The notes: generated by a model not told the origin, from the sequence alone. Positions 2,964 through 33,078 are shown, counted from the first letter of the stretch. The stretch: 64,000 bases of DNA from Syntrophomonadaceae bacterium (GCA_003554395.1 PWGD01000148.1:5958-69957); one strand, 5' to 3'. A program made the numbers and translations.

Positions 2964-3902
2964 TTGAAAATGGCACAAGATATGAACGGTAAAGATATCA
3001 TATCAATTCATGAGCTCAGCCGGGAAGAAATTGACCAGATTCTGTATACATCTCATGTCCTTAAGATGAAAAATAAGCTGGGAGAGTTATATCATCCGTT
3101 GAAGGGGAAAAGCCTGGGTATGATTTTCCAAAAATCTTCTACCAGGACCAGGGTTTCCTTCGAAGTGGGCATGTGGCAATTAGGCGGTTATGCATTATTT
3201 TTAAGTGCCAATGATCTGCAGCTTAAACGCGGAGAAACAATCGCCGATACGGCCAGGAATCTGAGCCGATACCTGGACGGGATCATGATCCGCACCTATA
3301 ACCACCAGGATATAGTGGATTTTGCCGAATACAGTTCAAAACCGGTCATTAACGGGCTGACCGACTTACTGCATCCCTGCCAGGTTCTTTCCGATATTTT
3401 TACAATCCAGGAAAAGAAGCAGGACTTAAAAGGCCTCAAAGTGGCCTATCTAGGCGATGGCAATAATATGGCCCATTCACTGATGTTTGGAGGGGCAAAA
3501 ATGGGTATGGAAATATCTATTTGTTCACCCTCCGGTTTCGAACCTGACCCTGAAATTACCAGACTGGCCAGACTTGATGCCTCCCAAACCGGTGGCAAAA
3601 TTGTTATTGAAGATGATCCTTACCGGGCCGTGCAGGAAGCGGATATAATATATACGGATGTCTGGACCAGTATGGGTATGGAAGGCGAAGAAGAGAAGAG
3701 GGTGGAGAGTTTTTCACGCTACCAGGTGAACAGCGCCTTGCTTGAGAAGGCAAAAGATAACGTTCTGGTCATGCACTGCCTGCCCGCACACCGGGGTGAA
3801 GAGATAACCGATGAAGTTATAGACGGCCCCCACTCGATTGTTTTTGATCAGGCTGAAAACCGTCTGCATGTCCAAAAGGCAATTATGGCCTTAATCATCT
3901 AG
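2964..3902 (+). CDS. argF: Ornithine carbamoyltransferase
   Basis: It has the carbamoyl-phosphate-binding STRTR motif and the ornithine-binding HCLPAHRGEE motif of OTCase. AGGAGG lies upstream. The start could be TTG 2964 or ATG 2970. Confidence 0.9.
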   Translation: MKMAQDMNGKDIISIHELSREEIDQILYTSHVLKMKNKLGELYHPLKGKSLGMIFQKSSTRTRVSFEVGMWQLGGYALFLSANDLQLKRGETIADTARNLSRYLDGIMIRTYNHQDIVDFAEYSSKPVINGLTDLLHPCQVLSDIFTIQEKKQDLKGLKVAYLGDGNNMAHSLMFGGAKMGMEISICSPSGFEPDPEITRLARLDASQTGGKIVIEDDPYRAVQEADIIYTDVWTSMGMEGEEEKRVESFSRYQVNSALLEKAKDNVLVMHCLPAHRGEEITDEVIDGPHSIVFDQAENRLHVQKAIMALII

Positions 3903-3949
3903 AAACCTGAACTAAGATATAACTAGCTTTACAATGAGAGGTTGTTAAA

Positions 3950-6900
3950 ATGGGTGAGGATCAAAAGCATGAAATCAACCTTGGCCTGGATATTGGTGTT
4001 TTTTCAGCCAAGGGTGTTATTTTAGATAATGGTCAAGTAGGTAAAGTTAAATTTCCGACTGCTGGAAGGCCGGTTGAAGCGGCCCAGAAATGCATCGATC
4101 ACCTGCTCGAAGGCAAACAGGCTCGGTTGATAAAAGTCGGTGTAATGGGGCAAAACGGCAAACTGGTAGCTGAAGGTTTTCATATCAGGCATTTGCTTGA
4201 AATTGAAGCTCTCCAGGCCGGCCTGGCCCACCAGCAAATTGAAGCCGATTATGTCTTGTCCCTGGGTCACGAGAATGTTCACTACCTGGAGCTGGACAAA
4301 AATAAACAGATCAGTTATTTCAGCCGCAACGGACAATGCGCGGCTGGTAGCGGTTCGTTTTGGTACCAGCAGGCAACCAGGATGGGTTACAATGATCGAG
4401 AGCTGGCAGAAATTGCTGTTCAGGCCGATTCGGCTGTTCCTATCTCCGGCCGCTGCGCGGTTTTTGCCAAGTCCGACATGACCCATGCCATTAATGAAGG
4501 GGCTACCCAAAGCGCTGTATCAGCCGGAATGGGCAAAGCCCTGGTTGAAAATATAGTAACCAGTGTGGTTCAGAACCGTCTTCAGGGGCCAGGAACACTG
4601 GTTACCGTCGGTGGTGTAGCCAATAATAAAGCAGTAATCAAATATCTCGATCAATATGTGAGCACTGAAAATATTACTTTGTTCATTCCTGAAGATCATG
4701 AATACATTAACGCTGTAGGAGCAGCCGTAAAAGGTACGCAGTTTGATTTTAATGAACTTATTAACAACAAGCTGGTAACTACTGAATACGAACCTGAAAA
4801 TCCCCTTCCCCCATTAAAACCTGAACAGGTCTGCTATCTCGAAAACAAGTCGACCCCAAAAGATTTTGACCTTTCCCAGGTTTATTTAGGCGTGGACTGC
4901 GGCTCTGTCTCAACCAAATGTGTCCTCCTCGATCAAAAAGGTCGCCAGATTGGCGGGGTTTACCTGCCGACAACCGGCCGCCCGGCCCTGCAGGTGCTGG
5001 AATTGATGAAACAAGTTGAAGAGCGTTATGGATCATTGATTGGGAACGCTCCGATTGTGGCCTGCACTACCGGCTCGGGAAGATTTTTATCCCAGAAAAT
5101 CTTAAATGCGGAATATGCCGTGGACGAAATTACCTGTCAGGCCGAGGGGATCAAGAGTTTGTTTGAGGATGATAGCACCCTTTCTATAATCGAAATTGGT
5201 GGGGAAGACTCCAAGTTTATTCAACTGCATAACGGCATACTCTATGATTATAATATGAACCCGGTTTGTGCCGCCGGCACCGGCACCTTCCTGGAAAACC
5301 TGGCCGAACTGCTCGGCGTCAGTATCAAGGATGAATTCTCCAATAAGTCTTTTGCTGCTGAATACGGTGTTGATCTCGGCGACATCTGCACCCTGATTTC
5401 CCAGTCAATTCTGGCCTCAGCTTCTGCCAGGGGCTTGCCCCTTAATGAGCAATTGGCCAGCCTGGCCTATTCTTCTGCCCAAAATTATCTCAGTAAAACC
5501 GTGGATAAAAGGCCCCTGGACGGCAGGGTTGTTTTCGCAGGAGCCACCGCCAAGAACCATGCCCTGGCTGCGGCCCTGGCCTATATTTGTGAAAAAACCG
5601 TTTATGTGCCTCCCGAACCGGAATTGACCGGAGCTCTGGGCAGCGCCCTGATGGCCAGACAGTTCCAACTGCGGGGTTATAAAAGCCGCTATTCATTTAG
5701 CAGCCTCTCTGGATTCAGCCAGTTTTCCAGTGATAAGAAACCATGTAAGGCAGAGTGCAAACATGAGCATAACTGTGTATTGAACATAATCAGTTTTTCA
5801 GACGGAAAGAAATTTGTTTATGGCGATCGCTGTGGACGCTATTCCGGCATCGATAAAAAGAAAGACGGCGAAGATTTACCCGACTATGCCGCTAAAAGAA
5901 ACGAGCTGTTTCACGAAGCGATTGAAGATACAGATCCTGACGGTCCGCGGGTGGGTATCGCCCGCTGCGGCCTCTACTTTGATTATTATCCCTTCTGGGC
6001 GTCATTTTTTCGCAAGCTGGGCTGTTCTGTAGTCCTATCCGATGAAAGCACAGCTGAAACGCTTCAGAAGGGTAAAATAAATCTGGATTCTGAGATGTGC
6101 TACCCGATGAAAGTAATTATCGGGCATTATCAGGATTTAAAGGAAAAAGACTTGGATTATGTTTTTCTGCCTGAGGTGGTAAACACAGAAGACCTGCCCT
6201 GGGCTGCAGGTTGGCCCCGTAACTTTGTTTGTCCCCTGCTGCAAACTCTGCGGGGTACGGTTGTAAACTCGATTGAATATGAGCCGGAAAAGGTGCTTTA
6301 CGCCCAGCTCAACTATAAAGACGGCTTTGAGTGCATTAAAGAACAGTTAGAACCGGCAGCCAGGAAAATCCTTGGGGCGGGTTACAGCGATAACCTCCTG
6401 GATGAGGCAGTCCGTGCTGCTTACGGCGCCCTGGAGGGTTTTAGAAATAATCTCTCTTTCGCAGCCGAAGAAATGTTTGAAGATCTGAAAGCTAATTCCG
6501 ATCGGGCGGCGGCAGTATTTTTAAGCCGCAGCTACACCCTTTATGATGAACTTATTTCCAAGAAATCGATGCGCTTCGCCCGTGAAAGCGGTTTGATGGC
6601 TGTTCCGCACGAATATTTGGTCGCCTATCTTCAAGCCTGGTACGAAGGCAAAATAAACTCACCATACCTTGATCCTTACCGGGAAGAATTTAAGGTTTAC
6701 TTAAAAAATCAGGTGAAACAGATCCACAACCTTTACCCGGCTCAGCTGCAAAGAATACTGTCAGCGGTAATCCTGATTAATTTCATGAACCAGAAGACAA
6801 AAGAAACAGGCCTTCCCCAGGTAAACATGATCTTTTTAGATCCTTTCAAGTGTGGGCCAAACGCGATGCTCAGGCACTTTTTAAAGGGGATGACCGATTA

Positions 6901-8308
6901 CCTCCGTTTGACTCTGGACGAGCATACCGCTCCGGCGGGCATGATTACCAGGCTGGAAGCCTTCCGGAATACCTGCCTGTCCAGGGAAAAATTCCGGGCC
7001 CCGACTATCCCATCTTCGGAGACTTGCACTGTTGATCAAGATGACTGGAACAAGATCCTGATTCCCGATATGACTAAGCATTCCGATATATTTGCCTCCT
7101 TTTTCAGGAATTGTGGAATTGAAGCCGAAGTTATACCCAGGGGCAGGCCGGGAGATCTCTCTCTGGCCCAGCGCTATGTCAACGGTGAAGAATGCCTGCC
7201 TTTTATTCAGAACCTGCAGGATTATCTGCACCACCTGCATTCAAACAAACCTAAAAACGGCGAGGTTTTCTTCCAGGGCTGGGCCTGCGGGCCCTGCCGT
7301 TATGGTCTTTATGCCCCGGTTCAGAACCTGGCTCTAAACAGGGCCGGCTTCGGAGAGAGAAAAGTGTGTGCGGTCCGGCTGGCCGATGTGGTTAAGCGCT
7401 GCGGTTATTCTTCGATAATCGGCCTCTTCAACGCTTTGACGGTTATGGACATCCTTTACAAACTGTTGCACAGGGTGAGGCCCTATGAGCTGGAACCCGG
7501 ATCCAGCAGACGTCTTTTTGATAATTACAGCAAAAAAATGTTTTCACTGCTGGAAAATTACCGGGCGCCGTTAGTCAGCTTGTTCAGCGGCAGTTATAGA
7601 AAGCCGCTGGAAGACCTGATTCGAGAGGCGGGAGAGGAATTTAGCCGGATCCCGGTTGATAACAGCCTGGTTAAACCAAGGATCCTTTTAGGCGGAGAGT
7701 TTTACGTGCGTATGGACAACCGCTGTAACCAGGAAGTTATAACAAAAATAGAGGAAGCCGGCGGTGAGGTTTGCCTGGCCCCGGTAACAGAAATCTTTAC
7801 CTATACCCTTTATATCGATTACCATGAAACCCGGCAGGCCTTCAGGTTGAAAAGAAGGCCGGCCGACTACCTCAAGCAAAAAATCTATAAACTCTTAATC
7901 GACATCGCACACCGCGATGAGGTTGCGTTGGAAAATGCTGCCGGGCCACTGCTTGAAGATCTCCACGAACCTGCGCCCTGGGAGATCATGGAACATGCCG
8001 TCAAACATGTTTCCCGGCATTACGGTGGCGAACCGCCGATGACGATCGGGCGGACTGCTGCTTTCAGCAGCAGAGAGAGGGTTGGGGGTGCGATCTTTGT
8101 TGCTCCCTTTACCTGCATGCCCAGTTCGGTGGTCGAGGCCCAGCAGGGGCTCCTGCAGGATAGACTGGGTCTCCCGGTCGTTACAGTTTATTACGACGGC
8201 AAGGAAAATACCAACCGTGATGAAATGGTTGAAGGCCTGGTCTTTCAAGCCCGCCAAAAAATTAACGGGGATTTGCCGGTTCGAGATCCACAATATCAAC
8301 TATCCTGA
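3950..8308 (+). CDS. Large fusion protein of 1452 aa: two tandem BadF/BadG/BcrA/BcrD-type ATPase (CoA-substrate-specific enzyme activase) domains joined to a DUF2229/HgdB-like (2-hydroxyacyl-CoA-dehydratase-D-component-like) domain
   Basis: It contains two actin-fold ATPase cores. The first is LGLDIGVFSAKG…GGVANNKAV and the second is LGVDCGSVSTKC…FAGATAKNHALAAAL. A Cys cluster follows (CKAECKHEHNC…C), then ~800 aa with a CGPC motif typical of the dehydratase-component-like uncharacterised domain. Confidence 0.7.
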   Translation: MGEDQKHEINLGLDIGVFSAKGVILDNGQVGKVKFPTAGRPVEAAQKCIDHLLEGKQARLIKVGVMGQNGKLVAEGFHIRHLLEIEALQAGLAHQQIEADYVLSLGHENVHYLELDKNKQISYFSRNGQCAAGSGSFWYQQATRMGYNDRELAEIAVQADSAVPISGRCAVFAKSDMTHAINEGATQSAVSAGMGKALVENIVTSVVQNRLQGPGTLVTVGGVANNKAVIKYLDQYVSTENITLFIPEDHEYINAVGAAVKGTQFDFNELINNKLVTTEYEPENPLPPLKPEQVCYLENKSTPKDFDLSQVYLGVDCGSVSTKCVLLDQKGRQIGGVYLPTTGRPALQVLELMKQVEERYGSLIGNAPIVACTTGSGRFLSQKILNAEYAVDEITCQAEGIKSLFEDDSTLSIIEIGGEDSKFIQLHNGILYDYNMNPVCAAGTGTFLENLAELLGVSIKDEFSNKSFAAEYGVDLGDICTLISQSILASASARGLPLNEQLASLAYSSAQNYLSKTVDKRPLDGRVVFAGATAKNHALAAALAYICEKTVYVPPEPELTGALGSALMARQFQLRGYKSRYSFSSLSGFSQFSSDKKPCKAECKHEHNCVLNIISFSDGKKFVYGDRCGRYSGIDKKKDGEDLPDYAAKRNELFHEAIEDTDPDGPRVGIARCGLYFDYYPFWASFFRKLGCSVVLSDESTAETLQKGKINLDSEMCYPMKVIIGHYQDLKEKDLDYVFLPEVVNTEDLPWAAGWPRNFVCPLLQTLRGTVVNSIEYEPEKVLYAQLNYKDGFECIKEQLEPAARKILGAGYSDNLLDEAVRAAYGALEGFRNNLSFAAEEMFEDLKANSDRAAAVFLSRSYTLYDELISKKSMRFARESGLMAVPHEYLVAYLQAWYEGKINSPYLDPYREEFKVYLKNQVKQIHNLYPAQLQRILSAVILINFMNQKTKETGLPQVNMIFLDPFKCGPNAMLRHFLKGMTDYLRLTLDEHTAPAGMITRLEAFRNTCLSREKFRAPTIPSSETCTVDQDDWNKILIPDMTKHSDIFASFFRNCGIEAEVIPRGRPGDLSLAQRYVNGEECLPFIQNLQDYLHHLHSNKPKNGEVFFQGWACGPCRYGLYAPVQNLALNRAGFGERKVCAVRLADVVKRCGYSSIIGLFNALTVMDILYKLLHRVRPYELEPGSSRRLFDNYSKKMFSLLENYRAPLVSLFSGSYRKPLEDLIREAGEEFSRIPVDNSLVKPRILLGGEFYVRMDNRCNQEVITKIEEAGGEVCLAPVTEIFTYTLYIDYHETRQAFRLKRRPADYLKQKIYKLLIDIAHRDEVALENAAGPLLEDLHEPAPWEIMEHAVKHVSRHYGGEPPMTIGRTAAFSSRERVGGAIFVAPFTCMPSSVVEAQQGLLQDRLGLPVVTVYYDGKENTNRDEMVEGLVFQARQKINGDLPVRDPQYQLS

Positions 8309-8612
8309 CTACCCGAGGAGAGGCAGATCCCGAGCTGAAGGTAATTTTGCCGGCAGCAGGATCGCCGCGCAAGGGGGTACCGGTAAAGGTTTTTCGGCCG
8401 CTTTTAGTAAAAACGGTTACTATCAAGGACCGGTGACCGGACAGGGCCTCTTCAAATAGCTGCTGCAGCCGCTCCCAATGCTGTTCGTCAAAGTGGGGGC
8501 GGCTGTTTTCTTCATCCTGATGTTTCTGGTTGTTATATTGCTGCAGCCCCCCACGGTGTTCAGGAAGCATCATTTTACTGCAGGCAAACTGCTGATTAAT
8601 CTTTTTGCTCAT
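8262..8612 (-). CDS. YolD-like protein, the partner of Y-family polymerases and a proposed UmuD analogue
   Basis: It is ~115 aa and sits immediately downstream of the Y-family polymerase; its ATG overlaps the polymerase stop by 4 nt (ATGA). The sequence pattern (…LIVTVFTKSGRKTFTGTPLRGDPAAGKITF…) is typical of YolD. Its 3' end overlaps the convergent 1452-aa gene by 46 nt. Confidence 0.6.
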   Translation of the reverse strand: MSKKINQQFACSKMMLPEHRGGLQQYNNQKHQDEENSRPHFDEQHWERLQQLFEEALSGHRSLIVTVFTKSGRKTFTGTPLRGDPAAGKITFSSGSASPRVVRIVDIVDLEPANPR

Positions 8613-10092: not shown

Positions 10093-11511
10093 ATGGAGCA
10101 TTTCACTTTTTATCGGGCTTTAGGGCTCAGCGGGCCGGCGGTTGTTTCTGCTTACGGAGCGGGCGGGAAAACTACGATTCTTCAAAAACTGGCCTCTGAA
10201 ATAGCGGCCAGGAATGAAAAAGCGCTGCTGACTACTACTACTAAAATGTACCGGCCGCCTGAGCTGCCATTATTTTGCGAACCTGATTTAGACCGGGCCG
10301 CCGGATCGCTTCAAAAGCACTTCGGGACAAATAAACTGGCCGTTCTTGGCAATAGCATCCTCTCCGACGGTAAAATTGAAGGCATAAAGCCTTCCTGGGT
10401 TGAATTTTTGCGCGATAAGCTGCAGGTATCGGTCCTTGTTGAAGCAGACGGCGCAAAAAGAAAATCTTTGAAAGGATATGCTTCCCATGAACCCGTTCTT
10501 CCGGCATCTTCCGATTACATTATCGCTGTCCTGGGCGGTGACGCTCTTGGAAAAAAAATATCTTTTGCCAATACCCACCGTCTTGAACTTTTTTTAAAAA
10601 ATACTGGAACAAGGGAGGGAGGAGAAGTAAATGAAACCGTATTTGCCGGGGCATATCAATACATGCTTGAAATTGGCCTGGCCCAGGCGCCCCGGGCTTC
10701 TGTATTTTTTGTTATCAATAAAGGAGATTTGATTGCTTCGCCCGGTCCGTCCGCCCTGCGTGTGGCCGGTTTAATTAAAAATACGGCCCTAAAAAGCCGG
10801 CCTGAGAGGCTGCTGGTTACCGAAGGTCGGGATAGCCACCCGGTCAAGATTACTTTAAATTTAAAAACCCCGCGGTCTCCGGTCCTGGTTTCCTGTATTG
10901 TTCTTGCCGCCGGAGCATCTTTACGGATGGGGAGAGATAAGCTCAAACTGGCAGCGGGAAATAAAAACCTTCTCGAGCATACCGTAAGTAAAGTATTAGC
11001 TTCCGGCATCAGGGACCTGGTTATTGTAACTTCGCCTGGAAAAGCTGATTCAATCCGGCCTTTCGAGTCTAAGAGAAATAAAGGCCTCAATATTAAATAT
11101 GTTGAAAACCCATATTTTAAAGAGGGAATGTCTACCTCCCTCAAAGCCGGCCTGGAGGCTGTTGACCTGGATTCACAGGGCGCTATCTTTGCCCTGGCCG
11201 ATCAACCCCACTTACCTGCCCGGATTTACAACTTAATCTGCCGGGCTTATATGGATAACCTTGCCCTTGTAACCTGCCCTGTTTACAGGGGGCACCGGGG
11301 CAACCCGGCCCTTTTTGACAGACGGATCTGGCCTGTAGTGATGAGAATGACCGGTGATCAGGGCGGGCGGGCTGTATTTAGAATGATAAAAAAAGAAGAG
11401 GTTAATTATGTTAAGGTCAAAACCCCTGCAGTGCTTTTGGATATTGACAGCCCGGAAGATTATTTATTATATTTGGATAATTTTTCAGGGATAGATCCCG
11501 ACCATACTTGA
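10093..11511 (+). CDS. Fusion of a YqeC-like accessory protein (linked to selenium-dependent molybdenum hydroxylases) with a MocA/MobA-like molybdenum-cofactor nucleotidyltransferase
   Basis: The N-terminal half carries a P-loop-like AYGAGGKTT motif and resembles the YqeC family. The C-terminal half (VSCIVLAAGASLRMGRDKLKLAAG…LVIVT…ALADQP) is a MobA-like NTP-transferase fold. Confidence 0.65.
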   Translation: MEHFTFYRALGLSGPAVVSAYGAGGKTTILQKLASEIAARNEKALLTTTTKMYRPPELPLFCEPDLDRAAGSLQKHFGTNKLAVLGNSILSDGKIEGIKPSWVEFLRDKLQVSVLVEADGAKRKSLKGYASHEPVLPASSDYIIAVLGGDALGKKISFANTHRLELFLKNTGTREGGEVNETVFAGAYQYMLEIGLAQAPRASVFFVINKGDLIASPGPSALRVAGLIKNTALKSRPERLLVTEGRDSHPVKITLNLKTPRSPVLVSCIVLAAGASLRMGRDKLKLAAGNKNLLEHTVSKVLASGIRDLVIVTSPGKADSIRPFESKRNKGLNIKYVENPYFKEGMSTSLKAGLEAVDLDSQGAIFALADQPHLPARIYNLICRAYMDNLALVTCPVYRGHRGNPALFDRRIWPVVMRMTGDQGGRAVFRMIKKEEVNYVKVKTPAVLLDIDSPEDYLLYLDNFSGIDPDHT

Positions 11512-16185: not shown

Positions 16186-16261
16186 TGGTGAGCCATCCAG
16201 GATTCGAACCTGGGACACCCTGATTAAAAGTCAGGTGCTCTACCAACTGAGCTAATGGCCC
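16186..16261 (-). tRNA. tRNA-Lys (anticodon TTT)
   Basis: The reverse complement gives GGGCCAUUAGCUCAGUUGG…CCUGACUUUUAAUCAGG…GGUUCGAAUCC…CACCA. Anticodon is UUU. Length is 76 nt. Confidence 0.85.
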
Positions 16262-16265
16262 TTTT

Positions 16266-16352
16266 TGGTGGAGAGGACTGGATTTGAACCAGTGAAGGCG
16301 AACGCCAGCAGATTTACAGTCTGCCCCCTTTGGCCAACTTGGGTACCTCTCC
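16266..16352 (-). tRNA. tRNA-Tyr (anticodon GTA)
   Basis: The reverse complement gives GGAGAGGUACCCAAGUUGG…GCAGACUGUAAAUCUGC…long variable arm…GGUUCAAAUCC…CCACCA. Confidence 0.8.
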
Positions 16353-16363
16353 ACAGCTCTTCA

Positions 16364-16438
16364 TGGAGCCGACGAAGGGATTCGAACCCCCAACCTGCTG
16401 ATTACAAATCAGCTGCTCTTCCATTGAGCTACGTCGGC
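16364..16438 (-). tRNA. tRNA-Thr (anticodon TGT)
   Basis: The reverse complement gives GCCGACGUAGCUCAAUGG…GCUGAUUUGUAAUCAGC…GGUUCGAAUCC…GGCUCCA. Confidence 0.85.
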
Positions 16439-22604: not shown

Positions 22605-23510
22605 ATGACCAAAGGCCTCATTTTCAATATTCAACGATATTCACTGCATGACGGACCGGGAATAAGAACGACGATCTTTTTAAAAGGCTGCCCCTTGAGC
22701 TGCTGGTGGTGCCAGAATCCGGAGAGCATCAACCGGGAACCTGATCTCATGAGGCAACCCGACCGCTGCCTGGGCTGCGGTTCCTGCCAGGAAGCCTGCC
22801 CGGAAGGGGCGGTCAGAAGCGGTAAAGTCGGGCCGGTTATAGACCGTGACCTCTGCACCCGCTGCCTGAAATGCACTGTGGTTTGTCCTGCAGAAGCCCT
22901 GGAAGCGGTGGGTAGAGAATATACGGTATCAGAACTGGTAAGGGAAGCGCTCAAGGATCGTTTTATTTTTGACAGTTCAGGGGGCGGGGTAACTTTTTCC
23001 GGTGGAGAACCCCTGATGCAGCCCGATTTTCTTGAAGAGTCTCTTCAGGCCTTTTGCAAGGAAGGAATCCATACAGTTGTGGATACTTCCGGTTGTGCGC
23101 CCTGGCCGATCCTGGAAAAAATTTCTGTTTACACCGACCTGTTTCTGTATGATCTTAAATTGATTGACGACCTCGAAAGTGAGGAATATACCGGCTTATC
23201 AAGCCGTTTGAGTGTGGAGAACTTAAAAAAGCTGGTGGAAAAAGGGGCTTTGATTCAAATTCGGATGCCGGTAGTTCCTTTAATCACCGATTCCATCGCA
23301 AATATTAATTCCATAGCCGATTTGCTTATTGAATGCGGCCTTAATGAGTTGGAACTAATACCTTATCACAATTACGGCACTGCCAAGTATGCCAGGCTTG
23401 ATCTTGAATACCGGCCCGGAACAATAAAGGTTCCCACGGCAGAACAAATGGACAGGATCAAAGCCCGCTTTGAGAACCGGGGAATAAGAATAAGCAGTGA
23501 GGATGATTGA
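22605..23510 (+). CDS. Glycyl-radical-enzyme activating enzyme (radical SAM) with two extra ferredoxin-like [4Fe-4S] motifs
   Basis: The radical-SAM CxxxCxxC motif is CPLSCWWC, in the N-terminal context YSLHDGPGIRTTIFLKGCPLSC typical of GRE activases. Two additional clusters are CLGCGSCQEACPEG and CTRCLKCTVVCPAEA. Its stop (23510) abuts the start of the GRE gene. Confidence 0.85.
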   Translation: MTKGLIFNIQRYSLHDGPGIRTTIFLKGCPLSCWWCQNPESINREPDLMRQPDRCLGCGSCQEACPEGAVRSGKVGPVIDRDLCTRCLKCTVVCPAEALEAVGREYTVSELVREALKDRFIFDSSGGGVTFSGGEPLMQPDFLEESLQAFCKEGIHTVVDTSGCAPWPILEKISVYTDLFLYDLKLIDDLESEEYTGLSSRLSVENLKKLVEKGALIQIRMPVVPLITDSIANINSIADLLIECGLNELELIPYHNYGTAKYARLDLEYRPGTIKVPTAEQMDRIKARFENRGIRISSEDD

Positions 23511-23511
23511 T

Positions 23512-25893
23512 ATGAATAACAACAGAAGAGGGATGAATGAAAGGATAAAAAAATTAAGGCAGCAAAGCGAAGATACAAACCCGTCAATCACCGCTGAAAG
23601 AGCTTTGCTGGTCACTGAGGCTTATCAGCATTATGCCGGTAAAGTATCCGCACCAATACTCAGGGCGCTTACATTTCAGCACCTGCTGGAGAACAAGACC
23701 ATCTGCATCAATGAAGAGGAGCTGATAGTCGGAGAACGCGGAACCGGACCCCAGGCCACGCCCACTTACCCCGAATTGTGCTGCCATACCGTCGAGGATC
23801 TGGAAGTGATCAACAACCGTAAAACCATTTCTTTTAAGGTAAGTGAAGAGGTGAAGCGGATTCAGGAAGAAACTCTGATTCCTTACTGGCAGGGCCGTTC
23901 CATGCGGGATAAAATATTTAACAGGATGAGCCCTGAATGGCTTGACTGTTACAAAGCCGGACTATTTACCGAATTTATGGAACAGCGCGCACCCGGTCAT
24001 ACCGTGGCCGGAGATAAGATTTACCGGAAAGGGATGCTCGATCTAAAAGAAGAAATTGCCGCTGCCCTGGGCTCTCTTGATTTTGCCAATGACCCTGAAG
24101 CTGTTTCCAAGAACGAGCAGCTGGAAGCCATGTCTCTCTGTGCCGATGCCCTGATCACTTTTGCCGGCAGGCATGCCCAAAAAGCCCGGGAGATGGCGGA
24201 AGAAGAAACCAACCCCCGGCGCAAGGAAGAGCTGCAGCAAATTGCTTCTGTCTGTCAGCGTGTGCCGGCCCTGCCGCCCCGTAATCTCTGGGAAGCACTC
24301 CAGTATTACTGGTTCGTGCACCTGGGAGTGGTGACCGAACTTAATACCTGGGACGCCTTCTGCCCGGGAAGACTTGATCAACATCTGGCCCCCTTCTACT
24401 ACAGGGGCCTGGAAGAAGGAACGCTGACCAGGGCTGGAGCGAAAGAGTTGCTGGAATGCTTCTGGATCAAATTTAACAACCAGCCTGCTCCACCCAAGGT
24501 GGGAATTACTTTAAAGGAGAGCGGTACATATACCGATTTTGCCAACATCAACCTGGGTGGAGTTAAACCAGATGGCAGTGACGGTGTAAATGATGTTACC
24601 TATTTGCTGCTGGAAGTAATCGATGAGATGAGGCTGCTGCAGCCGAGCACCAACGTCCAGGTCAGTAAAAAAAGTCCCGACCTTTTCCTTAAAAAAGCAG
24701 GAGAGGTTATCAGGAAAGGGTGGGGCCAACCTTCAGTTTTTAATGTTGAAGCAGTCATCGGCGAACTGCTGGGCCAGGGCAAATCCCTGGTTGACGCCCG
24801 TTGCGGAGGAACCAGCGGCTGCGTGGAAACCGGCGCTTTTGGCAAAGAGAGTTATATCCTGACCGGGTATTTCAACCTGGTAAAGGTTCTCGAAATAACC
24901 CTTAACGGCGGTAAAAATCCGGCGGACGGCAAACAACTGGGCCTGGATACCGGCAGCCCGGAGCGGCTTGAAAATTTCGAGCAGCTGCTCGAAGCCTTTG
25001 AAAAACAGCTCCGCCATTTTATTGACATCAAAATCGCCGGCAACCAGGTCATTGAAAAATTATATGCTGAACAAATGCCGGCCCCATTTTTATCCCTGAT
25101 TATTGATGATTGCATCGATAAGGGCAAGGACTATAATGCCGGCGGGGCCCGCTATAACACCAATTATATACAGGGTGTGGGCATCGGTACCATTACCGAC
25201 AGCCTTTCAGCGCTTAAAAAGCATATCTATGATGAAAAGAATTTTACCTGGGATGAACTGCTCGATACCTTAAAAGACAACTACCAGGGGCAGGAACAGG
25301 CCCGGCAATTTTTGATCCATAAAACCCCGCATTATGGAAACGATAATGACTATGCCGACTCTGTCATGCAGGATGTTTTTAAACGTTTTTACCGCACCGT
25401 GGACGGGCGCAGGACGGCCCGCGGGGGAACATATCGCATCAATATGCTGCCCACCACCTGCCACGTCTATTTTGGGTCGGTCATTGGAGCGACACCTGAT
25501 GGGCGCCTGGCCGGAATGCCCTTATCGGAAGGTATTTCACCGGTCCAGGGCGTTGATTTAAACGGGCCCACAGCGGTAATTAAATCAGCCTCGAAGATGG
25601 ATCACCTGCTTACCGGCGGCACCCTGCTGAACATGAAATTTACCCCCCGGATCCTGGAGGGAAACAAGGGGTTGGATAGCCTGGCCCAGCTGATCCGGTC
25701 ATATTTCATACTGGACGGCCACCATATCCAGTTTAATGTAATCGATGCCGAGACCCTGCGCGAGGCTCAAAATAATCCGGAACAATACCGCAGCCTGATC
25801 GTAAGGGTGGCCGGATACAGCGACTATTTCAATAACTTAAGCGAACAGCTTCAAAATGAGATCATTGCCCGGACGGCCCATGAAATGGGCTAA
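23512..25893 (+). CDS. Glycyl radical enzyme of the pyruvate-formate-lyase superfamily, eliminase (GCVE) clade. It is a candidate 4-hydroxyproline dehydratase or diol dehydratase type, with substrate unresolved.
   Basis: The C-terminal glycyl-radical motif is LIVRVAGYSDYFNNL (RVxGY). The active-site segment DARCGGTSGCVETG carries a Cys-x-Glu pair as in glycerol dehydratase, CutC and HypD. Size is ~794 aa. A GAGGA site lies 7 nt before ATG 23512; the ORF track starts at GTG 23497. Confidence 0.85.
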   Translation: MNNNRRGMNERIKKLRQQSEDTNPSITAERALLVTEAYQHYAGKVSAPILRALTFQHLLENKTICINEEELIVGERGTGPQATPTYPELCCHTVEDLEVINNRKTISFKVSEEVKRIQEETLIPYWQGRSMRDKIFNRMSPEWLDCYKAGLFTEFMEQRAPGHTVAGDKIYRKGMLDLKEEIAAALGSLDFANDPEAVSKNEQLEAMSLCADALITFAGRHAQKAREMAEEETNPRRKEELQQIASVCQRVPALPPRNLWEALQYYWFVHLGVVTELNTWDAFCPGRLDQHLAPFYYRGLEEGTLTRAGAKELLECFWIKFNNQPAPPKVGITLKESGTYTDFANINLGGVKPDGSDGVNDVTYLLLEVIDEMRLLQPSTNVQVSKKSPDLFLKKAGEVIRKGWGQPSVFNVEAVIGELLGQGKSLVDARCGGTSGCVETGAFGKESYILTGYFNLVKVLEITLNGGKNPADGKQLGLDTGSPERLENFEQLLEAFEKQLRHFIDIKIAGNQVIEKLYAEQMPAPFLSLIIDDCIDKGKDYNAGGARYNTNYIQGVGIGTITDSLSALKKHIYDEKNFTWDELLDTLKDNYQGQEQARQFLIHKTPHYGNDNDYADSVMQDVFKRFYRTVDGRRTARGGTYRINMLPTTCHVYFGSVIGATPDGRLAGMPLSEGISPVQGVDLNGPTAVIKSASKMDHLLTGGTLLNMKFTPRILEGNKGLDSLAQLIRSYFILDGHHIQFNVIDAETLREAQNNPEQYRSLIVRVAGYSDYFNNLSEQLQNEIIARTAHEMG

Positions 25894-26299: not shown

Positions 26300-27316
26300 T
26301 TGCATACTACTAATATTATACTATGGGGACTGGGAGCTATGGGTTCAGGTATTTACAAAGTTCTCCTGGAGCGCAGTGGCCCCGTTGTAAAAGGGGCAAT
26401 CGGCCAAAATCCCTTTAAGCTGGGCAAAGATTTGGGCACTATCCTGGGCATGGAACCAACCGGAACTATTATTTCCGGAGATGCGCAGGCAGTGCTTGAA
26501 AATGCCGATGCAGGGCTGGTTCTCCATTCCACCGGCTCATTCTTCAAAGAAATACATCACGAATTAATGCAGGCGGTCCGGGCGGGATGTAACGTCATTA
26601 CCATAGCTGAGGAGATGGCCGAGCCCTGGGCGGCCGATCAGATGCTGGCTGACGAGCTAAACGAAGAAGCTAAAAAATTTGGTGTTACAGTTATTGGAAC
26701 GGGCATTAATCCCGGTTTTGTCCTGGATGCCCTGGCCATCTGCCTTACCGGTGCCTGCTGTCAGGTCACCAAGATCGAGGCCGAAAGAATTAACGATCTA
26801 TCTCCATTCGGAAGCACTGTAATGGCTACCCAGGGTGTAGGGATTAGTCCGGAGCAATTTAAAAAGGGGATTGAGAATAACACTATTGTCGGGCATATAG
26901 GTTTCAAACAATCGATCTGCCTGATTGCCAGGGCTTTAAACTGGGATCTTGATCAAATTACCGAAGAAAAAGAGCCGATTATCTCATCTACTTACCGGGA
27001 GACTCCATATGTCAAAGTAGAGCCGGGCATGGTTGCCGGCTGCAATCACCGCGCCTACGGTTATATAAACGGCGAAGCAGTAATCACCCTTAAACACCCC
27101 CAGCAGGTATGCCCTGAAGCAGAAAACGTGGAAACCGGTGATTATATCAGAATTGAGGGCACCCCGCCGATAAACCTGTCCATAAAGCCTGAAATCCCGG
27201 GCGGCCTGGGAACGATGGCCATGGCGGTTAATATGATCCCGGTGGTGACTGCTGCCGGTCCGGGCTTGAAAACACTGCTGGACCTGCCTTTCCCTTCCTG
27301 CTGGAGCAGGGTATAG
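26300..27316 (+). CDS. ord: 2,4-diaminopentanoate dehydrogenase (DapB-like NAD(P) fold) of the ornithine oxidative pathway
   Basis: The N-terminal Rossmann motif is IILWGLGAMGSGIYKVL. The ~340-aa size and the position directly upstream of ortA, ortB, oraS and oraE match the described ornithine fermentation cluster. AGGAGGG lies before TTG 26300. Confidence 0.7.
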   Translation: MHTTNIILWGLGAMGSGIYKVLLERSGPVVKGAIGQNPFKLGKDLGTILGMEPTGTIISGDAQAVLENADAGLVLHSTGSFFKEIHHELMQAVRAGCNVITIAEEMAEPWAADQMLADELNEEAKKFGVTVIGTGINPGFVLDALAICLTGACCQVTKIEAERINDLSPFGSTVMATQGVGISPEQFKKGIENNTIVGHIGFKQSICLIARALNWDLDQITEEKEPIISSTYRETPYVKVEPGMVAGCNHRAYGYINGEAVITLKHPQQVCPEAENVETGDYIRIEGTPPINLSIKPEIPGGLGTMAMAVNMIPVVTAAGPGLKTLLDLPFPSCWSRV

Positions 27317-27397
27317 CCGAATTAAAAAGGTTTTAATTTAACTGTAATTCAAAAAGCGGGCGGTTAAGAGCAATCTGCCCTGAAAGGAGAATCAACT

Positions 27398-27712
27398 ATG
27401 GAAAAAGCGCAGACAGGTGACTGGGTCCAGGTCTTCAAAGTGGTTCTCAAACCGGAGGAAAGAGCCCCCGGCCTGCCCCCGGAAACTGCCAAAGTCCCCC
27501 TGACTATGAAGGTTAAGGGTTTCCTGATCGATCAAGCGGCCGCGGTTGGCGATCAGGTAGCAATCCGGACTGCAACAGGCAGAAAAGTGGAGGGGAAGCT
27601 GATCGGGATCAATCCGGCCTACGAGATCGATTATGGCCGGCCCCAGCCGGAACTATTAAATATAGGCTTTGAAACAAGAAGCCTGTTAAGTGGGGAGGCC
27701 GACAAGCAGTGA
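27398..27712 (+). CDS. ortA: 2-amino-4-ketopentanoate thiolase, small (alpha) subunit
   Basis: It is ~104 aa, translationally coupled to the PLP subunit that follows, and conserved in gene order with ord upstream. Confidence 0.65.
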   Translation: MEKAQTGDWVQVFKVVLKPEERAPGLPPETAKVPLTMKVKGFLIDQAAAVGDQVAIRTATGRKVEGKLIGINPAYEIDYGRPQPELLNIGFETRSLLSGEADKQ

Positions 27713-29127
27713 ATAACAACCCTGATTTTAGCTACCAGGGAGTAATGTCCAGGAAAAACCGGATTATGAAGCAGGCTGTAGGTATCGACTATGATCAGTT
27801 CGAGCTGGAGGGGATTGCCTTTGATTACGATGCAATGATGAACAAGGCCGGTTATTCACTGGAAGAAGTGCGTAAAATCCAGGAGGAAACCAATGTGGGC
27901 AAAACCCCGCTCTTTGAAATGCATAACCTGACCAAGCTGGTACGCCTCCATGCGGAACCGGGAAAAGGAGCGCGCATTTTTATCAAGGATGAAGCCTGCA
28001 ATCCCAGCGGCAGTTTCAAGGCGCGGCGGGCTTCGCTATCATGTTACCAGGCCCAAAAGCAAGGCTACAGGGGCGTAATATCGGCCACCAGCGGCAATTA
28101 CGGCGCCGCAGTGGCCTCCCAGTCCGCCATGCGCGGTTTGAACTGCATCGTGGTCCAGGAACTTTTCGACAGCCAGGATTTAAGCCAACCGGAAATTATG
28201 GAAAAAGGCCGGGCCTGCGAAGCCTACGGCGCTGAAGTGGTCCAGCTTTCCGTGGGGCCGGAGCTGTTTTACAAGTTCCTGATTTTGCTGGAAGAGACGC
28301 AGTATTTCAATGCCTCATTATATACCCCTTTCGGTATTGCCGGCATTGAAACTCTCGGCTATGAACTGGCCGAACAGGTTCGCCGGACGGTGGGCAAAGA
28401 TCCTGCCGCTGTCCTTATCACCCATGCCGGGGGCGGAAATGTGACCGGCACAGCCAGAGGCCTTCAAAAAGCGGGTTGTAAAGATACAGATGTGATCGGC
28501 ATCAGTGTCGACTTAAGCGGCCTGCACATGGCCAGCGATCACGATTTCAACCGGAAATCATTTACTACCGGCCACACCGGTTTTGGGGTTCCCTTTGCCA
28601 CTTGGCCGGACCGGGCTGATGTGCCGCGAAATGCGGCCCGTTCCTTGAGGTACCTGGATCGCTATTATACGGTGACCCAGGGTGAAGTTTTTTACATGAC
28701 CGAACTCCTGGCCCAGTTGGAAGGGCTTGAAAGAGGCCCGGCAGGCAATACTTCCCTGGCCGGAGCTTTTGCCTTAGCCATGGAAATGGACCGCGACGAT
28801 GTCATTGTTGTACAGGAAACAGAATACACGGGAGCCGGAAAGCACCCCAGCCCCCAGCTTACTTTTGCCCGCAAACTGGGCATAGCGGTAAAAAGGGGCA
28901 AGCCTGAAGAGAGCATCCCCGGTCAGAATATTATCATCCCTGAATCCCCGGCCCAGATAGCGGTTAAAAGGGTAGACCTGGACAACTTAAAAAAATCGTA
29001 CCTAAAGAAGGTGGCCCAGGAAAAGGGCGGTGGAGCCTTGAGTCCGGTAGAACTGGATTATCTGGCCGCCGAACTGAAGACTTCAACCGGATGGGTTGAA
29101 AAACATTACGGGAAGGCAGGAGGATAA
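27709..29127 (+). CDS. ortB: 2-amino-4-ketopentanoate thiolase, PLP-dependent beta subunit (tryptophan-synthase-beta/threonine-synthase fold)
   Basis: The fold-type II PLP lysine motif is NPSGSFKARRA, and a glycine-rich loop TSGNYGAAVA is present. It is ~472 aa and overlaps the ortA stop (GTGA). Confidence 0.7.
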   Translation: MNNNPDFSYQGVMSRKNRIMKQAVGIDYDQFELEGIAFDYDAMMNKAGYSLEEVRKIQEETNVGKTPLFEMHNLTKLVRLHAEPGKGARIFIKDEACNPSGSFKARRASLSCYQAQKQGYRGVISATSGNYGAAVASQSAMRGLNCIVVQELFDSQDLSQPEIMEKGRACEAYGAEVVQLSVGPELFYKFLILLEETQYFNASLYTPFGIAGIETLGYELAEQVRRTVGKDPAAVLITHAGGGNVTGTARGLQKAGCKDTDVIGISVDLSGLHMASDHDFNRKSFTTGHTGFGVPFATWPDRADVPRNAARSLRYLDRYYTVTQGEVFYMTELLAQLEGLERGPAGNTSLAGAFALAMEMDRDDVIVVQETEYTGAGKHPSPQLTFARKLGIAVKRGKPEESIPGQNIIIPESPAQIAVKRVDLDNLKKSYLKKVAQEKGGGALSPVELDYLAAELKTSTGWVEKHYGKAGG

Positions 29128-29128
29128 T

Positions 29129-29497
29129 ATGAAGCGCGAGGATGATTACAGGCAGCGCCGTTCCACGGTGAAAAATTTAACCGATGAGCAGCTGGATCAT
29201 AAATTTTGGGGACTAACCGACCAAGTGGTTAACCCCCTTTTCGAGCTGGCCCGGGGCCATACTTCACCATCTATTGAACGTTCCGTCCTGCTGAGGATGG
29301 GCTTTTCCAGCCTGGAGGCCAAGCAAATCGTCCTGAATTGCGGTAAATATGGCCTGCTGGGCAAAGGAGCAGGGCACGTAGTGCTGCGCTTTGCCCAAAA
29401 ACGCAACCTGCCATACCGGGAAGCCGGCTTAATTTTGGCCGAGGGCCGGGAATGGGATCAGGCTGCAGCCTTGTTTGAAAAGGAGGGGCCATCTTGA
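29129..29497 (+). CDS. oraS: D-ornithine 4,5-aminomutase, small (S) subunit
   Basis: It is ~122 aa from the ATG preceded by GGAGG (MKREDDYRQRRS…). It lies immediately upstream of, and overlapping, the large E subunit. The ORF track has a longer N-terminal extension from 29096. Confidence 0.65.
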   Translation: MKREDDYRQRRSTVKNLTDEQLDHKFWGLTDQVVNPLFELARGHTSPSIERSVLLRMGFSSLEAKQIVLNCGKYGLLGKGAGHVVLRFAQKRNLPYREAGLILAEGREWDQAAALFEKEGPS

Positions 29498-31710
29498 AAC
29501 TAACACCGGAACAAAAACTTTCCCCTGAAGAGATTTTAAAAGACCTGGACCGGTACAGACCAAGACGCAAAGGCTGGACCTGGCGCCGCTCGATAAAGGA
29601 TGATGATGCTAAAATTGGGCCCTTTGAATACCGGCAGGCTGCTGAACCCCTCAAAAAAAGTATTCCCCTGCCTGCGGCCAAATCATTTGGCGGCATAGAT
29701 CCGCACCCTGGTTGTGTGGTCACCTCGGAAATTGCTTCCGGGCGTTTTGAAGATGATCTCCGCCGGATGAGGATGGTGGCCTGGCACGGGGCCGACCATC
29801 TCATGGTTATTCGGACCGCGGGGCAAAGCCACTTCGACGGTTTAATCGAAGGCACTCCTGAAGGAGTAGGCGGGGTGCCCATTTCAAGAAAGCAGATCCG
29901 GGCCACCCGCAAAGCCCTGGACCTGATTGAAGATGAAGTAGGTAGACAGCTTAACTTTCATTCCTACATAAGCGGGGTGGCCGGCCCGGAAATAGCCGTT
30001 CTTTTTGCTGAAGAAGGGGTTAATGGCGCCCACCAGGACCCTCAGTACAATGTCCTTTACCGGAATGTAAACATGTACCGCTCTTTTGTCGATGCGGCTG
30101 TAGCCAAAAAATTAATGCTTTCTGCCAATATCCTGCAGATAGACGGGGCCCATAACGCCAATGCTACGGCCAGGGAAGCCTGGAAGGTGATGCCGGAACT
30201 ATTAGTGCAGCATGCCATAAACTGCCGCTATTCGGAACTTGTCGGCATGCCCCGGGAAAACATCGCTCTTTCTACGGTTCCGCCAACCGCACCGCCGGCC
30301 CCGGCCCTGCGCATAGACCTGCCTTACGCGGTGGCCCTGCGCCAGCTTTTTAAAGATTTTAAAATGCGGGCCCAGATGAACACCAAGTATATGGAATCAT
30401 GCACCAGGGAAGTAACCGTTACCCACCCCCTCAACCTGCTCTTATCGAGACTGACCAGCGCCGATATCCAGAGCACAATTACTCCCGATGAAGGACGTAA
30501 CGTGCCCTGGCATTACAATTCTGTTCATGCCGTCAATACGGCCAGGCAGGCCCTGATCGGCCTGGATGGGATTACGGACATGGTTAAATTAAACCTGGAA
30601 GGAGAACTGGGCCATAAATCCCGGGAATTAAAAGAACGGGCCGTGCTCTTCCTGGAGGAAATCCTGGAAGTTGGAGGTTATTTTGCCGCTGTTGACCAGG
30701 GCTTTTTTGTCGATTCCGGCTTTTACCCGGAACGAAACGGGGACGGCATTAAACGTGATCCCGCGGGCGGGGTGGCATCCGATTCTATAGTGCCCCGCGA
30801 AGAGGATTATTATGCCCCCGTCTGCCACCACTTTGGATACAACAACCCGCCAATTGATTTTGGGGATCATTCTTCACCATGCGCCCCCATCGATGGTTGC
30901 TCCCTCTGCCGACCCGAAAAAATTATATACATTGACGAATTAGACCCTGAAGACAATGTTGAAAAAAGACTTGAGAAAAGCAGGCAATACCGGGAGAATA
31001 CCTTTAAGCCTGAAGCAGAGTGGGCCGGCGACGGAATTGTAACCATGACCATGTTACTGCCAGTATCTGAAGACATGGCAGAATATGGCGCCATGGATAT
31101 TGCCGGGCGTATGAACCTGGAAGATGTCGAAGTGATTAACCTGCAAAAAATGCACCCCGCGGAAGGCACCCTGGTAGAAATCAAAGGCAGGGTCGGTTTC
31201 AGCCTTGACCCGAAGAATATAACCATACCTCATAAAGAAGCTGTCCTTTCAGAAGAGGAAATCCGCCTGGCGGTCCAGAACAGGCCTCTCACTATAGTGG
31301 CCGGCACCGTCGGCGAAGACGAACATTCAGTTGGCATGAGAGAGATTCTTGACATTAAGCACGGTGGGCTGGAGGGATTTGGCATAGACTGCCACTACCT
31401 GGGAACATCGGTGCCGATCGAAAAGATGGCTGATGCTGCAGTCGAACTTGATGCCGACGCTATTTTGATCAGCACTATTATCACCCACAATGATGCTCAC
31501 CGTCAGAGTATGCGCAAACTAAACCAGGTTTGCCGGGAAAAAGGGCTGCGCGACGAGTTAATCTTAGTTGCCGGAGGAACCCAGGTAACCAATGAAATCG
31601 CCCAGGAAGAAGGTCTCGATCGGGGTTTTGGTCGAGGAACCAAGGGGATTGATGTTGCCAGTTTCCTGATCAAAAAAAAGGATTCGGTGGAAAAGAATCG
31701 TGAAAATTGA
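29494..31710 (+). CDS. oraE: D-ornithine 4,5-aminomutase, large (E) subunit, adenosylcobalamin- and PLP-dependent
   Basis: It is ~738 aa. The C-terminal B12-binding domain carries a DxHxxG motif (EDEHSVG) and a GG…GTQ Rossmann-like segment. The N-terminal TIM-barrel part is aminomutase-like. Confidence 0.75.
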   Translation: MKLTPEQKLSPEEILKDLDRYRPRRKGWTWRRSIKDDDAKIGPFEYRQAAEPLKKSIPLPAAKSFGGIDPHPGCVVTSEIASGRFEDDLRRMRMVAWHGADHLMVIRTAGQSHFDGLIEGTPEGVGGVPISRKQIRATRKALDLIEDEVGRQLNFHSYISGVAGPEIAVLFAEEGVNGAHQDPQYNVLYRNVNMYRSFVDAAVAKKLMLSANILQIDGAHNANATAREAWKVMPELLVQHAINCRYSELVGMPRENIALSTVPPTAPPAPALRIDLPYAVALRQLFKDFKMRAQMNTKYMESCTREVTVTHPLNLLLSRLTSADIQSTITPDEGRNVPWHYNSVHAVNTARQALIGLDGITDMVKLNLEGELGHKSRELKERAVLFLEEILEVGGYFAAVDQGFFVDSGFYPERNGDGIKRDPAGGVASDSIVPREEDYYAPVCHHFGYNNPPIDFGDHSSPCAPIDGCSLCRPEKIIYIDELDPEDNVEKRLEKSRQYRENTFKPEAEWAGDGIVTMTMLLPVSEDMAEYGAMDIAGRMNLEDVEVINLQKMHPAEGTLVEIKGRVGFSLDPKNITIPHKEAVLSEEEIRLAVQNRPLTIVAGTVGEDEHSVGMREILDIKHGGLEGFGIDCHYLGTSVPIEKMADAAVELDADAILISTIITHNDAHRQSMRKLNQVCREKGLRDELILVAGGTQVTNEIAQEEGLDRGFGRGTKGIDVASFLIKKKDSVEKNREN

Positions 31711-33055: not shown

Positions 33056-33078
33056 CCAATACAACTTATATAAACGGG

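Follow-up and report, generated by a model that had tools for sequence, protein, structure and literature searches.

The closest described systems are the anaerobic ether-lipid enzymes PlsA/PlsR and Ger, whose substrates are glycerolipid esters of the membrane (PMC13159169, PMC12838417, PMC8788747, PMC9702350). PlsA/PlsR of Clostridium perfringens is the anaerobic plasmalogen synthase, with a proposed chemistry of two sequential one-electron reductions, protonation and dehydration; Ger has been termed a 'modified PlsA'. The single-gene PlsA proteins of Enterococcus faecalis (4248 bp), Lactococcus cremoris (4311 bp) and Bifidobacterium longum (4920 bp) give plasmalogens in Escherichia coli and have been drawn as Act1-Act2-Red1-Red2 (PMC12838417); the verified proteins contain 1415-1639 aa. 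A pls orthologue of Listeria monocytogenes has been linked to anaerobic plasmalogen production. In Ger of Thermotoga maritima, Sahonero-Canavesi et al. 2022 (PMC13159169) describe PF01869 twice and PF09989 once, together with small sub-hits of PF09989/PF06050. Anaerobic expression of the T. maritima or the Desulfatibacillum alkenivorans gene in E. coli yields 1-O-alkyl glycerol ethers (PMC13159169), and one gene is enough for ether-lipid production in this host. The D. alkenivorans enzyme (159 kDa) can form diethers too. No ether lipids appeared when its paralogue Ger2 was expressed in E. coli; the authors name inclusion bodies as a possible cause. Here we analyse a gene with the same layout, the open reading frame (ORF) 3950-8308 on the + strand of a 64,000-nt, single-strand stretch of Syntrophomonadaceae bacterium DNA (GCA_003554395.1 PWGD01000148.1:5958-69957; the window).

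The order BcrAD_BadFG twice, DUF2229 and an HGD-D/DUF2229-like module in the encoded protein is that of Ger and of single-gene PlsA. It is placed beside these enzymes by the order of its domains, by its fold relations, by the conservation of its ligand cysteines and by homology over its full length to a pls orthologue, and we consider it probable that the gene encodes a single-polypeptide, ATP-dependent iron-sulfur (Fe-S) reductase of the PlsA/Ger family, which would convert esters to ethers in membrane glycerophospholipids. The initial annotation, made from the DNA alone, had recognised a fusion of two activase-type ATPase domains with a dehydratase-like part and described the architecture as having no assigned substrate. 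The latter statement is outdated in view of the PlsA/PlsR and Ger literature.

Domain architecture and cysteine motifs

Residue numbers below refer to the 1452-aa protein and nucleotide coordinates to the whole 64-kb window. The features of the gene are as follows.

3936..3941, + strand: ribosome-binding site GAGAGG, 8 nt 5' of the ATG, read from the sequence
3950..8308, + strand: whole gene, 1452 aa, 162 kDa, pI 5.8; candidate ether-lipid synthase of the PlsA/Ger family
3974..4735, + strand: Act1, ASKHA activase-type ATPase domain, residues ~9-262, from alignment to HadI (4EHT)
4880..5665, + strand: Act2, canonical activase ATPase domain, residues ~311-572, from alignment to 4EHT
5744..5833, + strand: putative metal site C599-X3-C603-X5-C609...C628 (CKAECKHEHNC...DRCG), between the ATPase and reductase modules
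5948..6979, + strand: Red1, DUF2229 domain with a helical extension, residues ~667-1010
7052..8269, + strand: Red2, second reductase/dehydratase-like module, residues ~1035-1440

The gene is real and intact, and the fusion is not an artefact. The ORF starts with ATG and runs for 1452 codons to a single stop, with zero internal stops. The best 120 homologues range from 1377 to 1516 aa, align to 94-100% of the query and are 52-100% identical to it; when 1.84 billion cluster representatives were searched exhaustively with the reductase half, strong matches were mostly ~1350-1480 aa long. Because the homologues are full-length and share the layout, a frameshifted fusion of separate genes, which had been raised as a possible pitfall, is ruled out. 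An identical protein in the same gene order is found on an ENA metagenome contig, which may be the source of the window itself. No transmembrane segments are predicted in the protein.

The N-terminal half contains the two ATPase domains that had been proposed. Pfam matches BcrAD_BadFG twice (E 9e-53), and NCBIfam matches the activator model TIGR00241 CoA_E_activ at 223 bits (cut-off 125); the benzoyl-CoA reductase subunit models score far under their cut-offs (95.7 versus 578 and 89 versus 313). Act1 and Act2 each align over the full length of HadI 4EHT (E 1e-20 and 1.3e-26, respectively), and both align end to end with HgdC (1HUX), MbdQ/MbdP (9GAI) and DCCP-R (7YYL) as well. Compared with one another by hhalign (probability 98.6%), the two domains are clearly paralogues at the profile level. 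The cluster cysteines are C130 (GQCAAGSG) and C169 (GRCAVF) in Act1, and C440 (PVCAAGTG) and C480 (DICTL) in Act2. All four are invariant in the subclade alignment, and their equivalents bridge a [4Fe-4S] cluster in the solved activator dimers.

The nucleotide sites of the two domains differ. The ASKHA phosphate motifs, on which the ATPase assignment had been made to depend, are canonical in Act2 (GVDCGSVSTK and EIGGEDSK, with EIGGED against DIGGQD in HadI) and degenerate in Act1; the assignment itself holds. In Act1, the phosphate-1 motif GLDIGVFSAK has GVFSAK in place of GSTASK, and the phosphate-2 motif has SLGHEN in place of DIGGQD (residues 102-110, nt 4253-4279). These changes are invariant in the subclade. 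Many of the 97 full-length family members that were aligned have a non-canonical Act1 site, whereas Act2 is always canonical (EIGGQDSK-like). Since the Act1 phosphate-2 motif is degenerate and Act2 always canonical, the alignment suggests a functional asymmetry of the two ATPases, in which only one site would hydrolyse ATP. A predicted model of residues 1-660 has a mean confidence (pLDDT) of 82.7 and a predicted template-modelling score (pTM) of 0.78. In Foldseek searches with this model, each domain matches 4EHU/1HUX/9GAI_D with a target TM-score of 0.86-0.90. The pTM, taken by itself, fits an Act1/Act2 intramolecular pseudo-dimer of the kind raised as a possibility for the two domains.

Both cysteine motifs quoted in the initial annotation are present, CKAECKHEHNC...C at residues 599-628 and WACGPCRYG at 1111-1119. 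The first belongs to a four-cysteine group that is invariant in the subclade alignment and conserved across the family. In the subclade the motif is expanded and His-rich (CxAxCxHxHNC...C), compared with CxxCxNxC...C in most other family members, Listeria included. The region is modelled as short β hairpins with low pLDDT, metal being absent from the model; it is a putative metal site for Fe-S or Zn.

The reductase half is made of two modules. DUF2229 (PF09989) matches residues 667-888 of Red1 (E 8.5e-44, 150 bits against a gathering score of 29.4). Red1 has an invariant cysteine triad of C717 (EMCYP), C761 (FVCPL) and C968 (FKCGP), and Red2 has one of C1082 (EECLP), C1116 (GPCRY) and C1389 (FTCMP). 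In 2-hydroxyacyl-CoA dehydratases (HAD), three cysteines hold each [4Fe-4S] cluster and one iron is left open. Red1 and Red2 match each other weakly by profile-profile comparison (E 2.8e-4, against 0.38 for a control pair), with the first two members of the triads aligned. Red2 of the window protein gives a sub-threshold DUF2229 match only (E 0.033), and HGD-D (PF06050) gives no match in the window protein at E<=10. Red2 of orthologues does match HGD-D, in one case exceeding the gathering score. The predicted fold of the reductase half resembles subunits of HAD, benzoyl-CoA reductase (BCR) and DCCP, and on this model Red2 is a second module of the Red1 fold. The kinship of the Red modules is seen in the fold because the family profile, searched against PDB sequences, reached ATPase domains only and no HAD, BCR or DCCP catalytic chain. 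The proposed relation of the C-terminal part to dehydratase D-components and DUF2229 is thus upheld by the DUF2229 domain and the fold match, without an HGD-D match in the window protein. The domain order expected from profile searches was recovered as BcrAD_BadFG twice followed by DUF2229, with HGD-D seen in orthologues only.

Family membership and the window clade

The homologue used for comparison is the Listeria protein WP_014600632.1 (1475 aa), the sole L. monocytogenes homologue found by tblastn of a plasmid collection. It has the same Pfam layout as the window protein and is collinear with it (26% identity over 1375 columns, E 4e-101), with every cysteine group in register. In the 97-member alignment, all the cysteine groups are kept down to 22% identity. 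The Listeria and Acetoanaerobium homologues come from PLSDB records of 2.1-2.9 Mb (NZ_CP030101.1, NZ_CP154629.1 and NZ_CP084075.1), which are labelled as plasmids and are evidently chromosomes; the Collinsella homologue was likewise obtained through a record mislabelled as a plasmid.

A different function on the same chassis has to be weighed here. The superfamily also reduces acetylene and hydrazine-type substrates, in the case of DCCP, and aromatic rings, in the case of BCR, and the protein could be a diverged BCR/HAD/DCCP-type ATP-dependent reductase of a non-lipid small molecule that has only the chassis in common with PlsA and Ger. We think this unlikely. The Red modules have no sequence-level match to HAD, BCR or DCCP chains, by profile included, which gives these enzymes no advantage over PlsA/Ger as relatives of the protein; collinearity is maintained, and every cysteine group retained, relative to the Listeria pls orthologue and the 97 family members; and verified PlsA and Ger, by their published descriptions, have the same layout and glycerolipid ester substrates.

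Within the PlsA/Ger family, the window protein belongs to a distinct clade. The search with the reductase half returned 2691 cluster representatives at E<=1e-3, 1299 at <=1e-10 and 304 at <=1e-30. At 50% clustering, the window clade falls into a single full-length cluster (P0023, 62% identity). Beyond it, identity is at most 36% (for a stand-alone 841-aa Red1+Red2 protein), or at most 32% among full-length proteins. With one 50% cluster and then nothing above 36% identity, the clade is, by these comparisons, tight and deep-branching. Its signatures are SLGHEN in Act1, the His-rich CxAxCxHxHNC motif and GPCRY/FTCMP in Red2. The Red2 motifs resemble those of a large GPCRF/FTCMP group, a non-Listeria group with 27-30% identity to the window protein; the few members that carry a name come from metagenome-assembled genomes (MAGs) assigned to Sumerlaeota, Brocadiia/Planctomycetota and Berkelbacteria. 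Farthest from the window protein in the 97-member alignment, at 22-23% identity, is the Listeria/Collinsella/Acetoanaerobium type (GGCRA/FACLP). Four proteins (P0123, of 841 aa, P0128, P0157 and P0194) consist of Red1+Red2 without ATPase domains and are 28-36% identical to the window reductase half. Judging from these sequences, the family also occurs split otherwise than in C. perfringens PlsA/PlsR.

The subclade is present in about 399 species genomes. The 80 nearest genomic loci are all from MAGs, mostly labelled Syntrophomonadaceae, Bacillota or Dethiobacter(ia), and many subclade MAGs are from soda-lake sediments; the T1Sed/CSSed series comes from hypersaline soda-lake sediments (PMC6295475). 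One MAG (Bacillota bacterium M55B129) has two subclade copies (L022 and L074), which are 65% and 53% identical to the window protein and recall Ger/Ger2 of D. alkenivorans.

Such second copies bear on another reading, in which the window protein is a catalytically silent or accessory paralogue that makes no ether lipids alone. It would agree with the behaviour of Ger2 in E. coli, with the presence of two copies in some MAGs and with the degenerate ATP site of Act1. We nevertheless regard it as very improbable. Across a subclade of this breadth, neither the putative cluster ligands nor the Act2 catalytic motifs vary, a degenerate Act1 is common family-wide and is not a sign of decay, and the inactivity of Ger2 may reflect the inclusion bodies that its authors mention.

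The habitat offers a hint at the product. In 'Ca. Syntrophonatronum acetioxidans', a soda-lake member of the Syntrophomonadaceae obtained by enrichment, the core lipids are mainly dialkyl glycerol diethers with minor fatty acids, and the route of diether biosynthesis was not known as of 2018 (PMC6295475). Natranaerofaba, a soda-lake member of the Bacillota, contains plasmalogens and as much as 80% diethers (PMC8359318). By motifs and identity, the window protein is nearer to the non-Listeria group. Because of lineage, habitat and Red2 motif affinities, we lean somewhat towards an alkyl-ether (Ger-like) product, with a plasmalogen product still carrying considerable weight. A more specific proposal, which we put forward tentatively and think possible rather than likely, is that the subclade is a Ger variant that efficiently reduces both sn-1 and sn-2 esters and builds the diether membranes of soda-lake Syntrophomonadaceae/Dethiobacteria.

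Genomic neighbourhood

The following features surround the gene or have been connected with it.

427-1356: DAGK/YegS-type lipid kinase, upstream
1430-1513, + strand: tRNA gene between the lipid kinase and the thiolase
1524-1550, + strand: strong terminator-like hairpin, 10-bp stem and T-run
1765-2949, + strand: thiolase, acetyl-CoA C-acetyltransferase-type (NCBIfam)
2964-3902, + strand: ornithine carbamoyltransferase (OTC, argF; NCBIfam)
8262-8612, - strand: YolD-like ORF, convergent (Pfam E 4.7e-10), followed by a DinB/Pol IV gene
26300-34278, + strand: ornithine oxidative (Stickland-type) degradation cluster, 18 kb downstream of the gene

The initial annotation correctly read thiolase, argF and the gene as co-directional and separated by 14 and 47 nt, and it correctly saw a 3' overlap with the YolD-like ORF; the overlap measures 47 nt when both stop codons are counted, not 46. 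It covers the last residues of the protein, which are not conserved and are modelled with low confidence, and in relatives it ranges from none to 77 nt. From the close spacing, a role in amino-acid or acyl-CoA fermentation had been proposed, in which an orphan radical enzyme would work with the thiolase and the OTC on carbon derived from citrulline or ornithine. The absence of a predicted terminator between the three genes, the ornithine degradation cluster and the retention of the order thiolase-OTC-gene in 21 loci at >=65% identity would agree with such a role. The order extends, however, through YolD and DinB in all 21 of the loci at >=65% identity that have flanking sequence, and the unrelated genes YolD, DinB and YqeC-MocA are equally conserved beside the gene in this close set, as plain synteny predicts. 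Outside it the adjacency disappears (none of 59 loci at <=60% identity), and it is also absent from the homologue loci of Listeria, Collinsella and Acetoanaerobium. Since unrelated neighbours are equally conserved and the adjacency is limited to close relatives, the position beside thiolase and argF is, on this comparison of loci, lineage synteny, a local gene order and not a functional module. Co-occurrence with argF and thiolase, which had been suggested as a check of the functional link, therefore speaks against it. Moreover, the neighbourhood has no gene for a CoA-transferase or 2-hydroxyacid dehydrogenase of the kind that accompanies HAD, and the literature already assigns a lipid substrate to the architecture. 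We give the fermentation role very little credence. The argF gene may be explained, in a catabolic role, by the ornithine cluster, without involving the gene studied here. That cluster contains 2,4-diaminopentanoate dehydrogenase (DAP_DH_C), a pyridoxal phosphate enzyme, a MutL-type protein, a class-III aminotransferase and a D-ornithine 4,5-aminomutase-like subunit with OAM_dimer and B12-binding domains.

In distant orthologues the gene otherwise stands alone in varied contexts, which fits the sufficiency of one gene in E. coli. Mining of the neighbourhoods for a functional partner gave only lineage synteny, with thiolase/OTC/YolD/DinB in one set and ThiE/RNase H/Lgt in another. Promoter and terminator scans showed no enrichment over shuffled sequence, Rfam detected no regulatory RNA near the gene, and the window has no aromatic-degradation gene context. 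In anaerobic-digester metagenomes, a 60%-identical orthologue (L005/L006, 11644-13886) has a TetR regulator and a 460-aa radical-SAM protein directly 3'.

Several points weigh against the assignment as an ether-lipid synthase. The comparison was made to a Listeria proxy that is implicated by the literature, not to an experimentally verified PlsA or Ger sequence. No other 50%-cluster representative exceeds 36% identity to the window clade, and DUF2229 scores 150 bits in the window protein against 286 in the Listeria homologue. An inactive family member exists in D. alkenivorans Ger2, as expressed in E. coli, and two recent papers hold that Ger and PlsA cannot be told apart by primary structure, a view that nothing in the present comparisons overturns. 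The tie to 'Ca. S. acetioxidans' is a correlation of lineage and habitat. No lipid-biosynthesis gene is reliably linked in the neighbourhoods. A functional tie to the upstream DAGK-type lipid kinase was considered and rejected, with the tRNA gene and the strong terminator intervening. A co-directional Lgt-like (prolipoprotein diacylglyceryl transferase) gene lies ~170 nt upstream in 26 of 56 loci at <=62% identity (L034-L060 and others), where it is preceded by RNase H and ThiE; this adjacency looks like a second lineage synteny, though Lgt uses phospholipid.

Besides the ornithine degradation cluster, the remainder of the window contains housekeeping genes. At 10093-11511 (+), a gene encodes a fusion of YqeC (selenium cofactor biosynthesis) and a MocA-type molybdenum cofactor cytidylyltransferase, which is kept downstream in close relatives. 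A glycyl-radical pair is found at 22605-25893 (+), in which the gene of a 301-aa radical-SAM activase with two ferredoxin-type clusters overlaps the start of that of a 798-aa pyruvate formate-lyase-like protein with a Gly_radical domain. A T-box leader (52128-52357, -; 125.6 bits) precedes a LeuA-type 2-isopropylmalate synthase gene (50511-52064, -), and three tRNA genes are clustered at 16.2-16.4 kb (16189-16438, -).

Proposed mechanism and comparison with known systems

The mechanism proposed here, including cluster content, electron path, lipid substrate and product, is modelled on homology and on the known mechanism of the BCR/HAD/DCCP superfamily. Act1 and Act2 would form an intramolecular pseudo-dimer with one bridging [4Fe-4S] cluster on C130/C169 and C440/C480, which would be reduced by ferredoxin or flavodoxin. 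Binding and hydrolysis of ATP, probably chiefly at Act2 because the Act1 phosphate-2 motif is degenerate, would push a low-potential electron into the reductase module; the four-cysteine site at 599-628 may share in the electron transfer. Red1 and Red2 would make a pseudo-heterodimer akin to HadB/HadC or BzdO/BzdN. In each module a three-cysteine site would hold a [4Fe-4S] cluster, whose spare iron would bind the sn-1 acyl chain at its ester carbonyl. Uptake of two electrons and two protons and then loss of water would give the 1-O-alk-1'-enyl (plasmalogen) lipid. A further two-electron reduction would give the 1-O-alkyl lipid, and the same chemistry at sn-2 would give a diether. The enzyme is expected to be oxygen-sensitive.

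Bacterial plasmalogens and alkyl ethers bear on the bacterial-archaeal 'lipid divide', on palaeoclimate proxies based on branched glycerol dialkyl glycerol tetraethers (brGDGT) and on membrane adaptation to extremes. No biosynthetic gene has been assigned to the diether membranes of uncultured haloalkaliphilic syntrophs, for which the gene studied here is a candidate ether-lipid synthase. If the subclade is a diether-building Ger variant, it would answer the question of 2018 how 'Ca. Syntrophonatronum' makes bacterial dialkyl glycerol diethers. The divergent sequence could also help to find the determinant of alkyl versus alkenyl product.

The radical dehydratases and class I BCR are the more remote systems. 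HadBC with HadI, and HgdAB with HgdC, use a separate activator, whereas the window protein fuses all four modules. Its Red modules lack sequence-level similarity to the 2-hydroxyacyl-CoA dehydratases, it has the extra four-cysteine site, and the CoA-transferase and dehydrogenase partner genes are absent. The substrate of its characterised relatives is a lipid ester, compared with a 2-hydroxyacyl-CoA in the dehydratases. BzdNOPQ, MbdONPQ and DCCP:DCCP-R (7YYL) consist of separate subunits with 10-14% identity to the window protein; class I BCR has four subunits and an aromatic-degradation context, in contrast to one fused chain without such a context here. By sequence, the protein appears to be neither HAD proper nor a class I BCR.

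Single-gene PlsA (E. faecalis, L. cremoris, B. longum and Listeria WP_014600632.1) has the same Act1-Act2-(4-Cys)-Red1-Red2 order in a lone gene and a similar size, whereas in C. perfringens the protein is split as PlsA/PlsR (CPE1194/1195). Against the PlsA type, the identity is 22-26%, and the window clade has SLGHEN in place of ELGGED in Act1, CX3CX5C in place of CX2CX3C in the four-cysteine site and GPCRY/FTCMP in place of GGCRA/FACLP in Red2. A TetR regulator adjoins the gene in Collinsella and reportedly in E. faecalis; none adjoins the window gene. Ger of T. maritima (Tmari_0479/AGL49404) and D. alkenivorans (SHJ90043) has two BcrAD_BadFG (B) domains and a DUF2229 (D) domain, then weak HGD-D/DUF2229 (H/D) sub-hits, as here; the string is B B D H D H in the window protein with its orthologues, against BBDHDDH and BBDHDHDH reported for Ger. 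The likeness to Ger, compared by description, extends to a mass of ~160 kDa and to strict anaerobes, and alkyl (di)ether lipids abound in the lineage and habitat of the window. The gene is a divergent newcomer to the established PlsA/Ger ATP-dependent ether-lipid synthases, and it gives no sign of a new type of system or of a new fermentation pathway.

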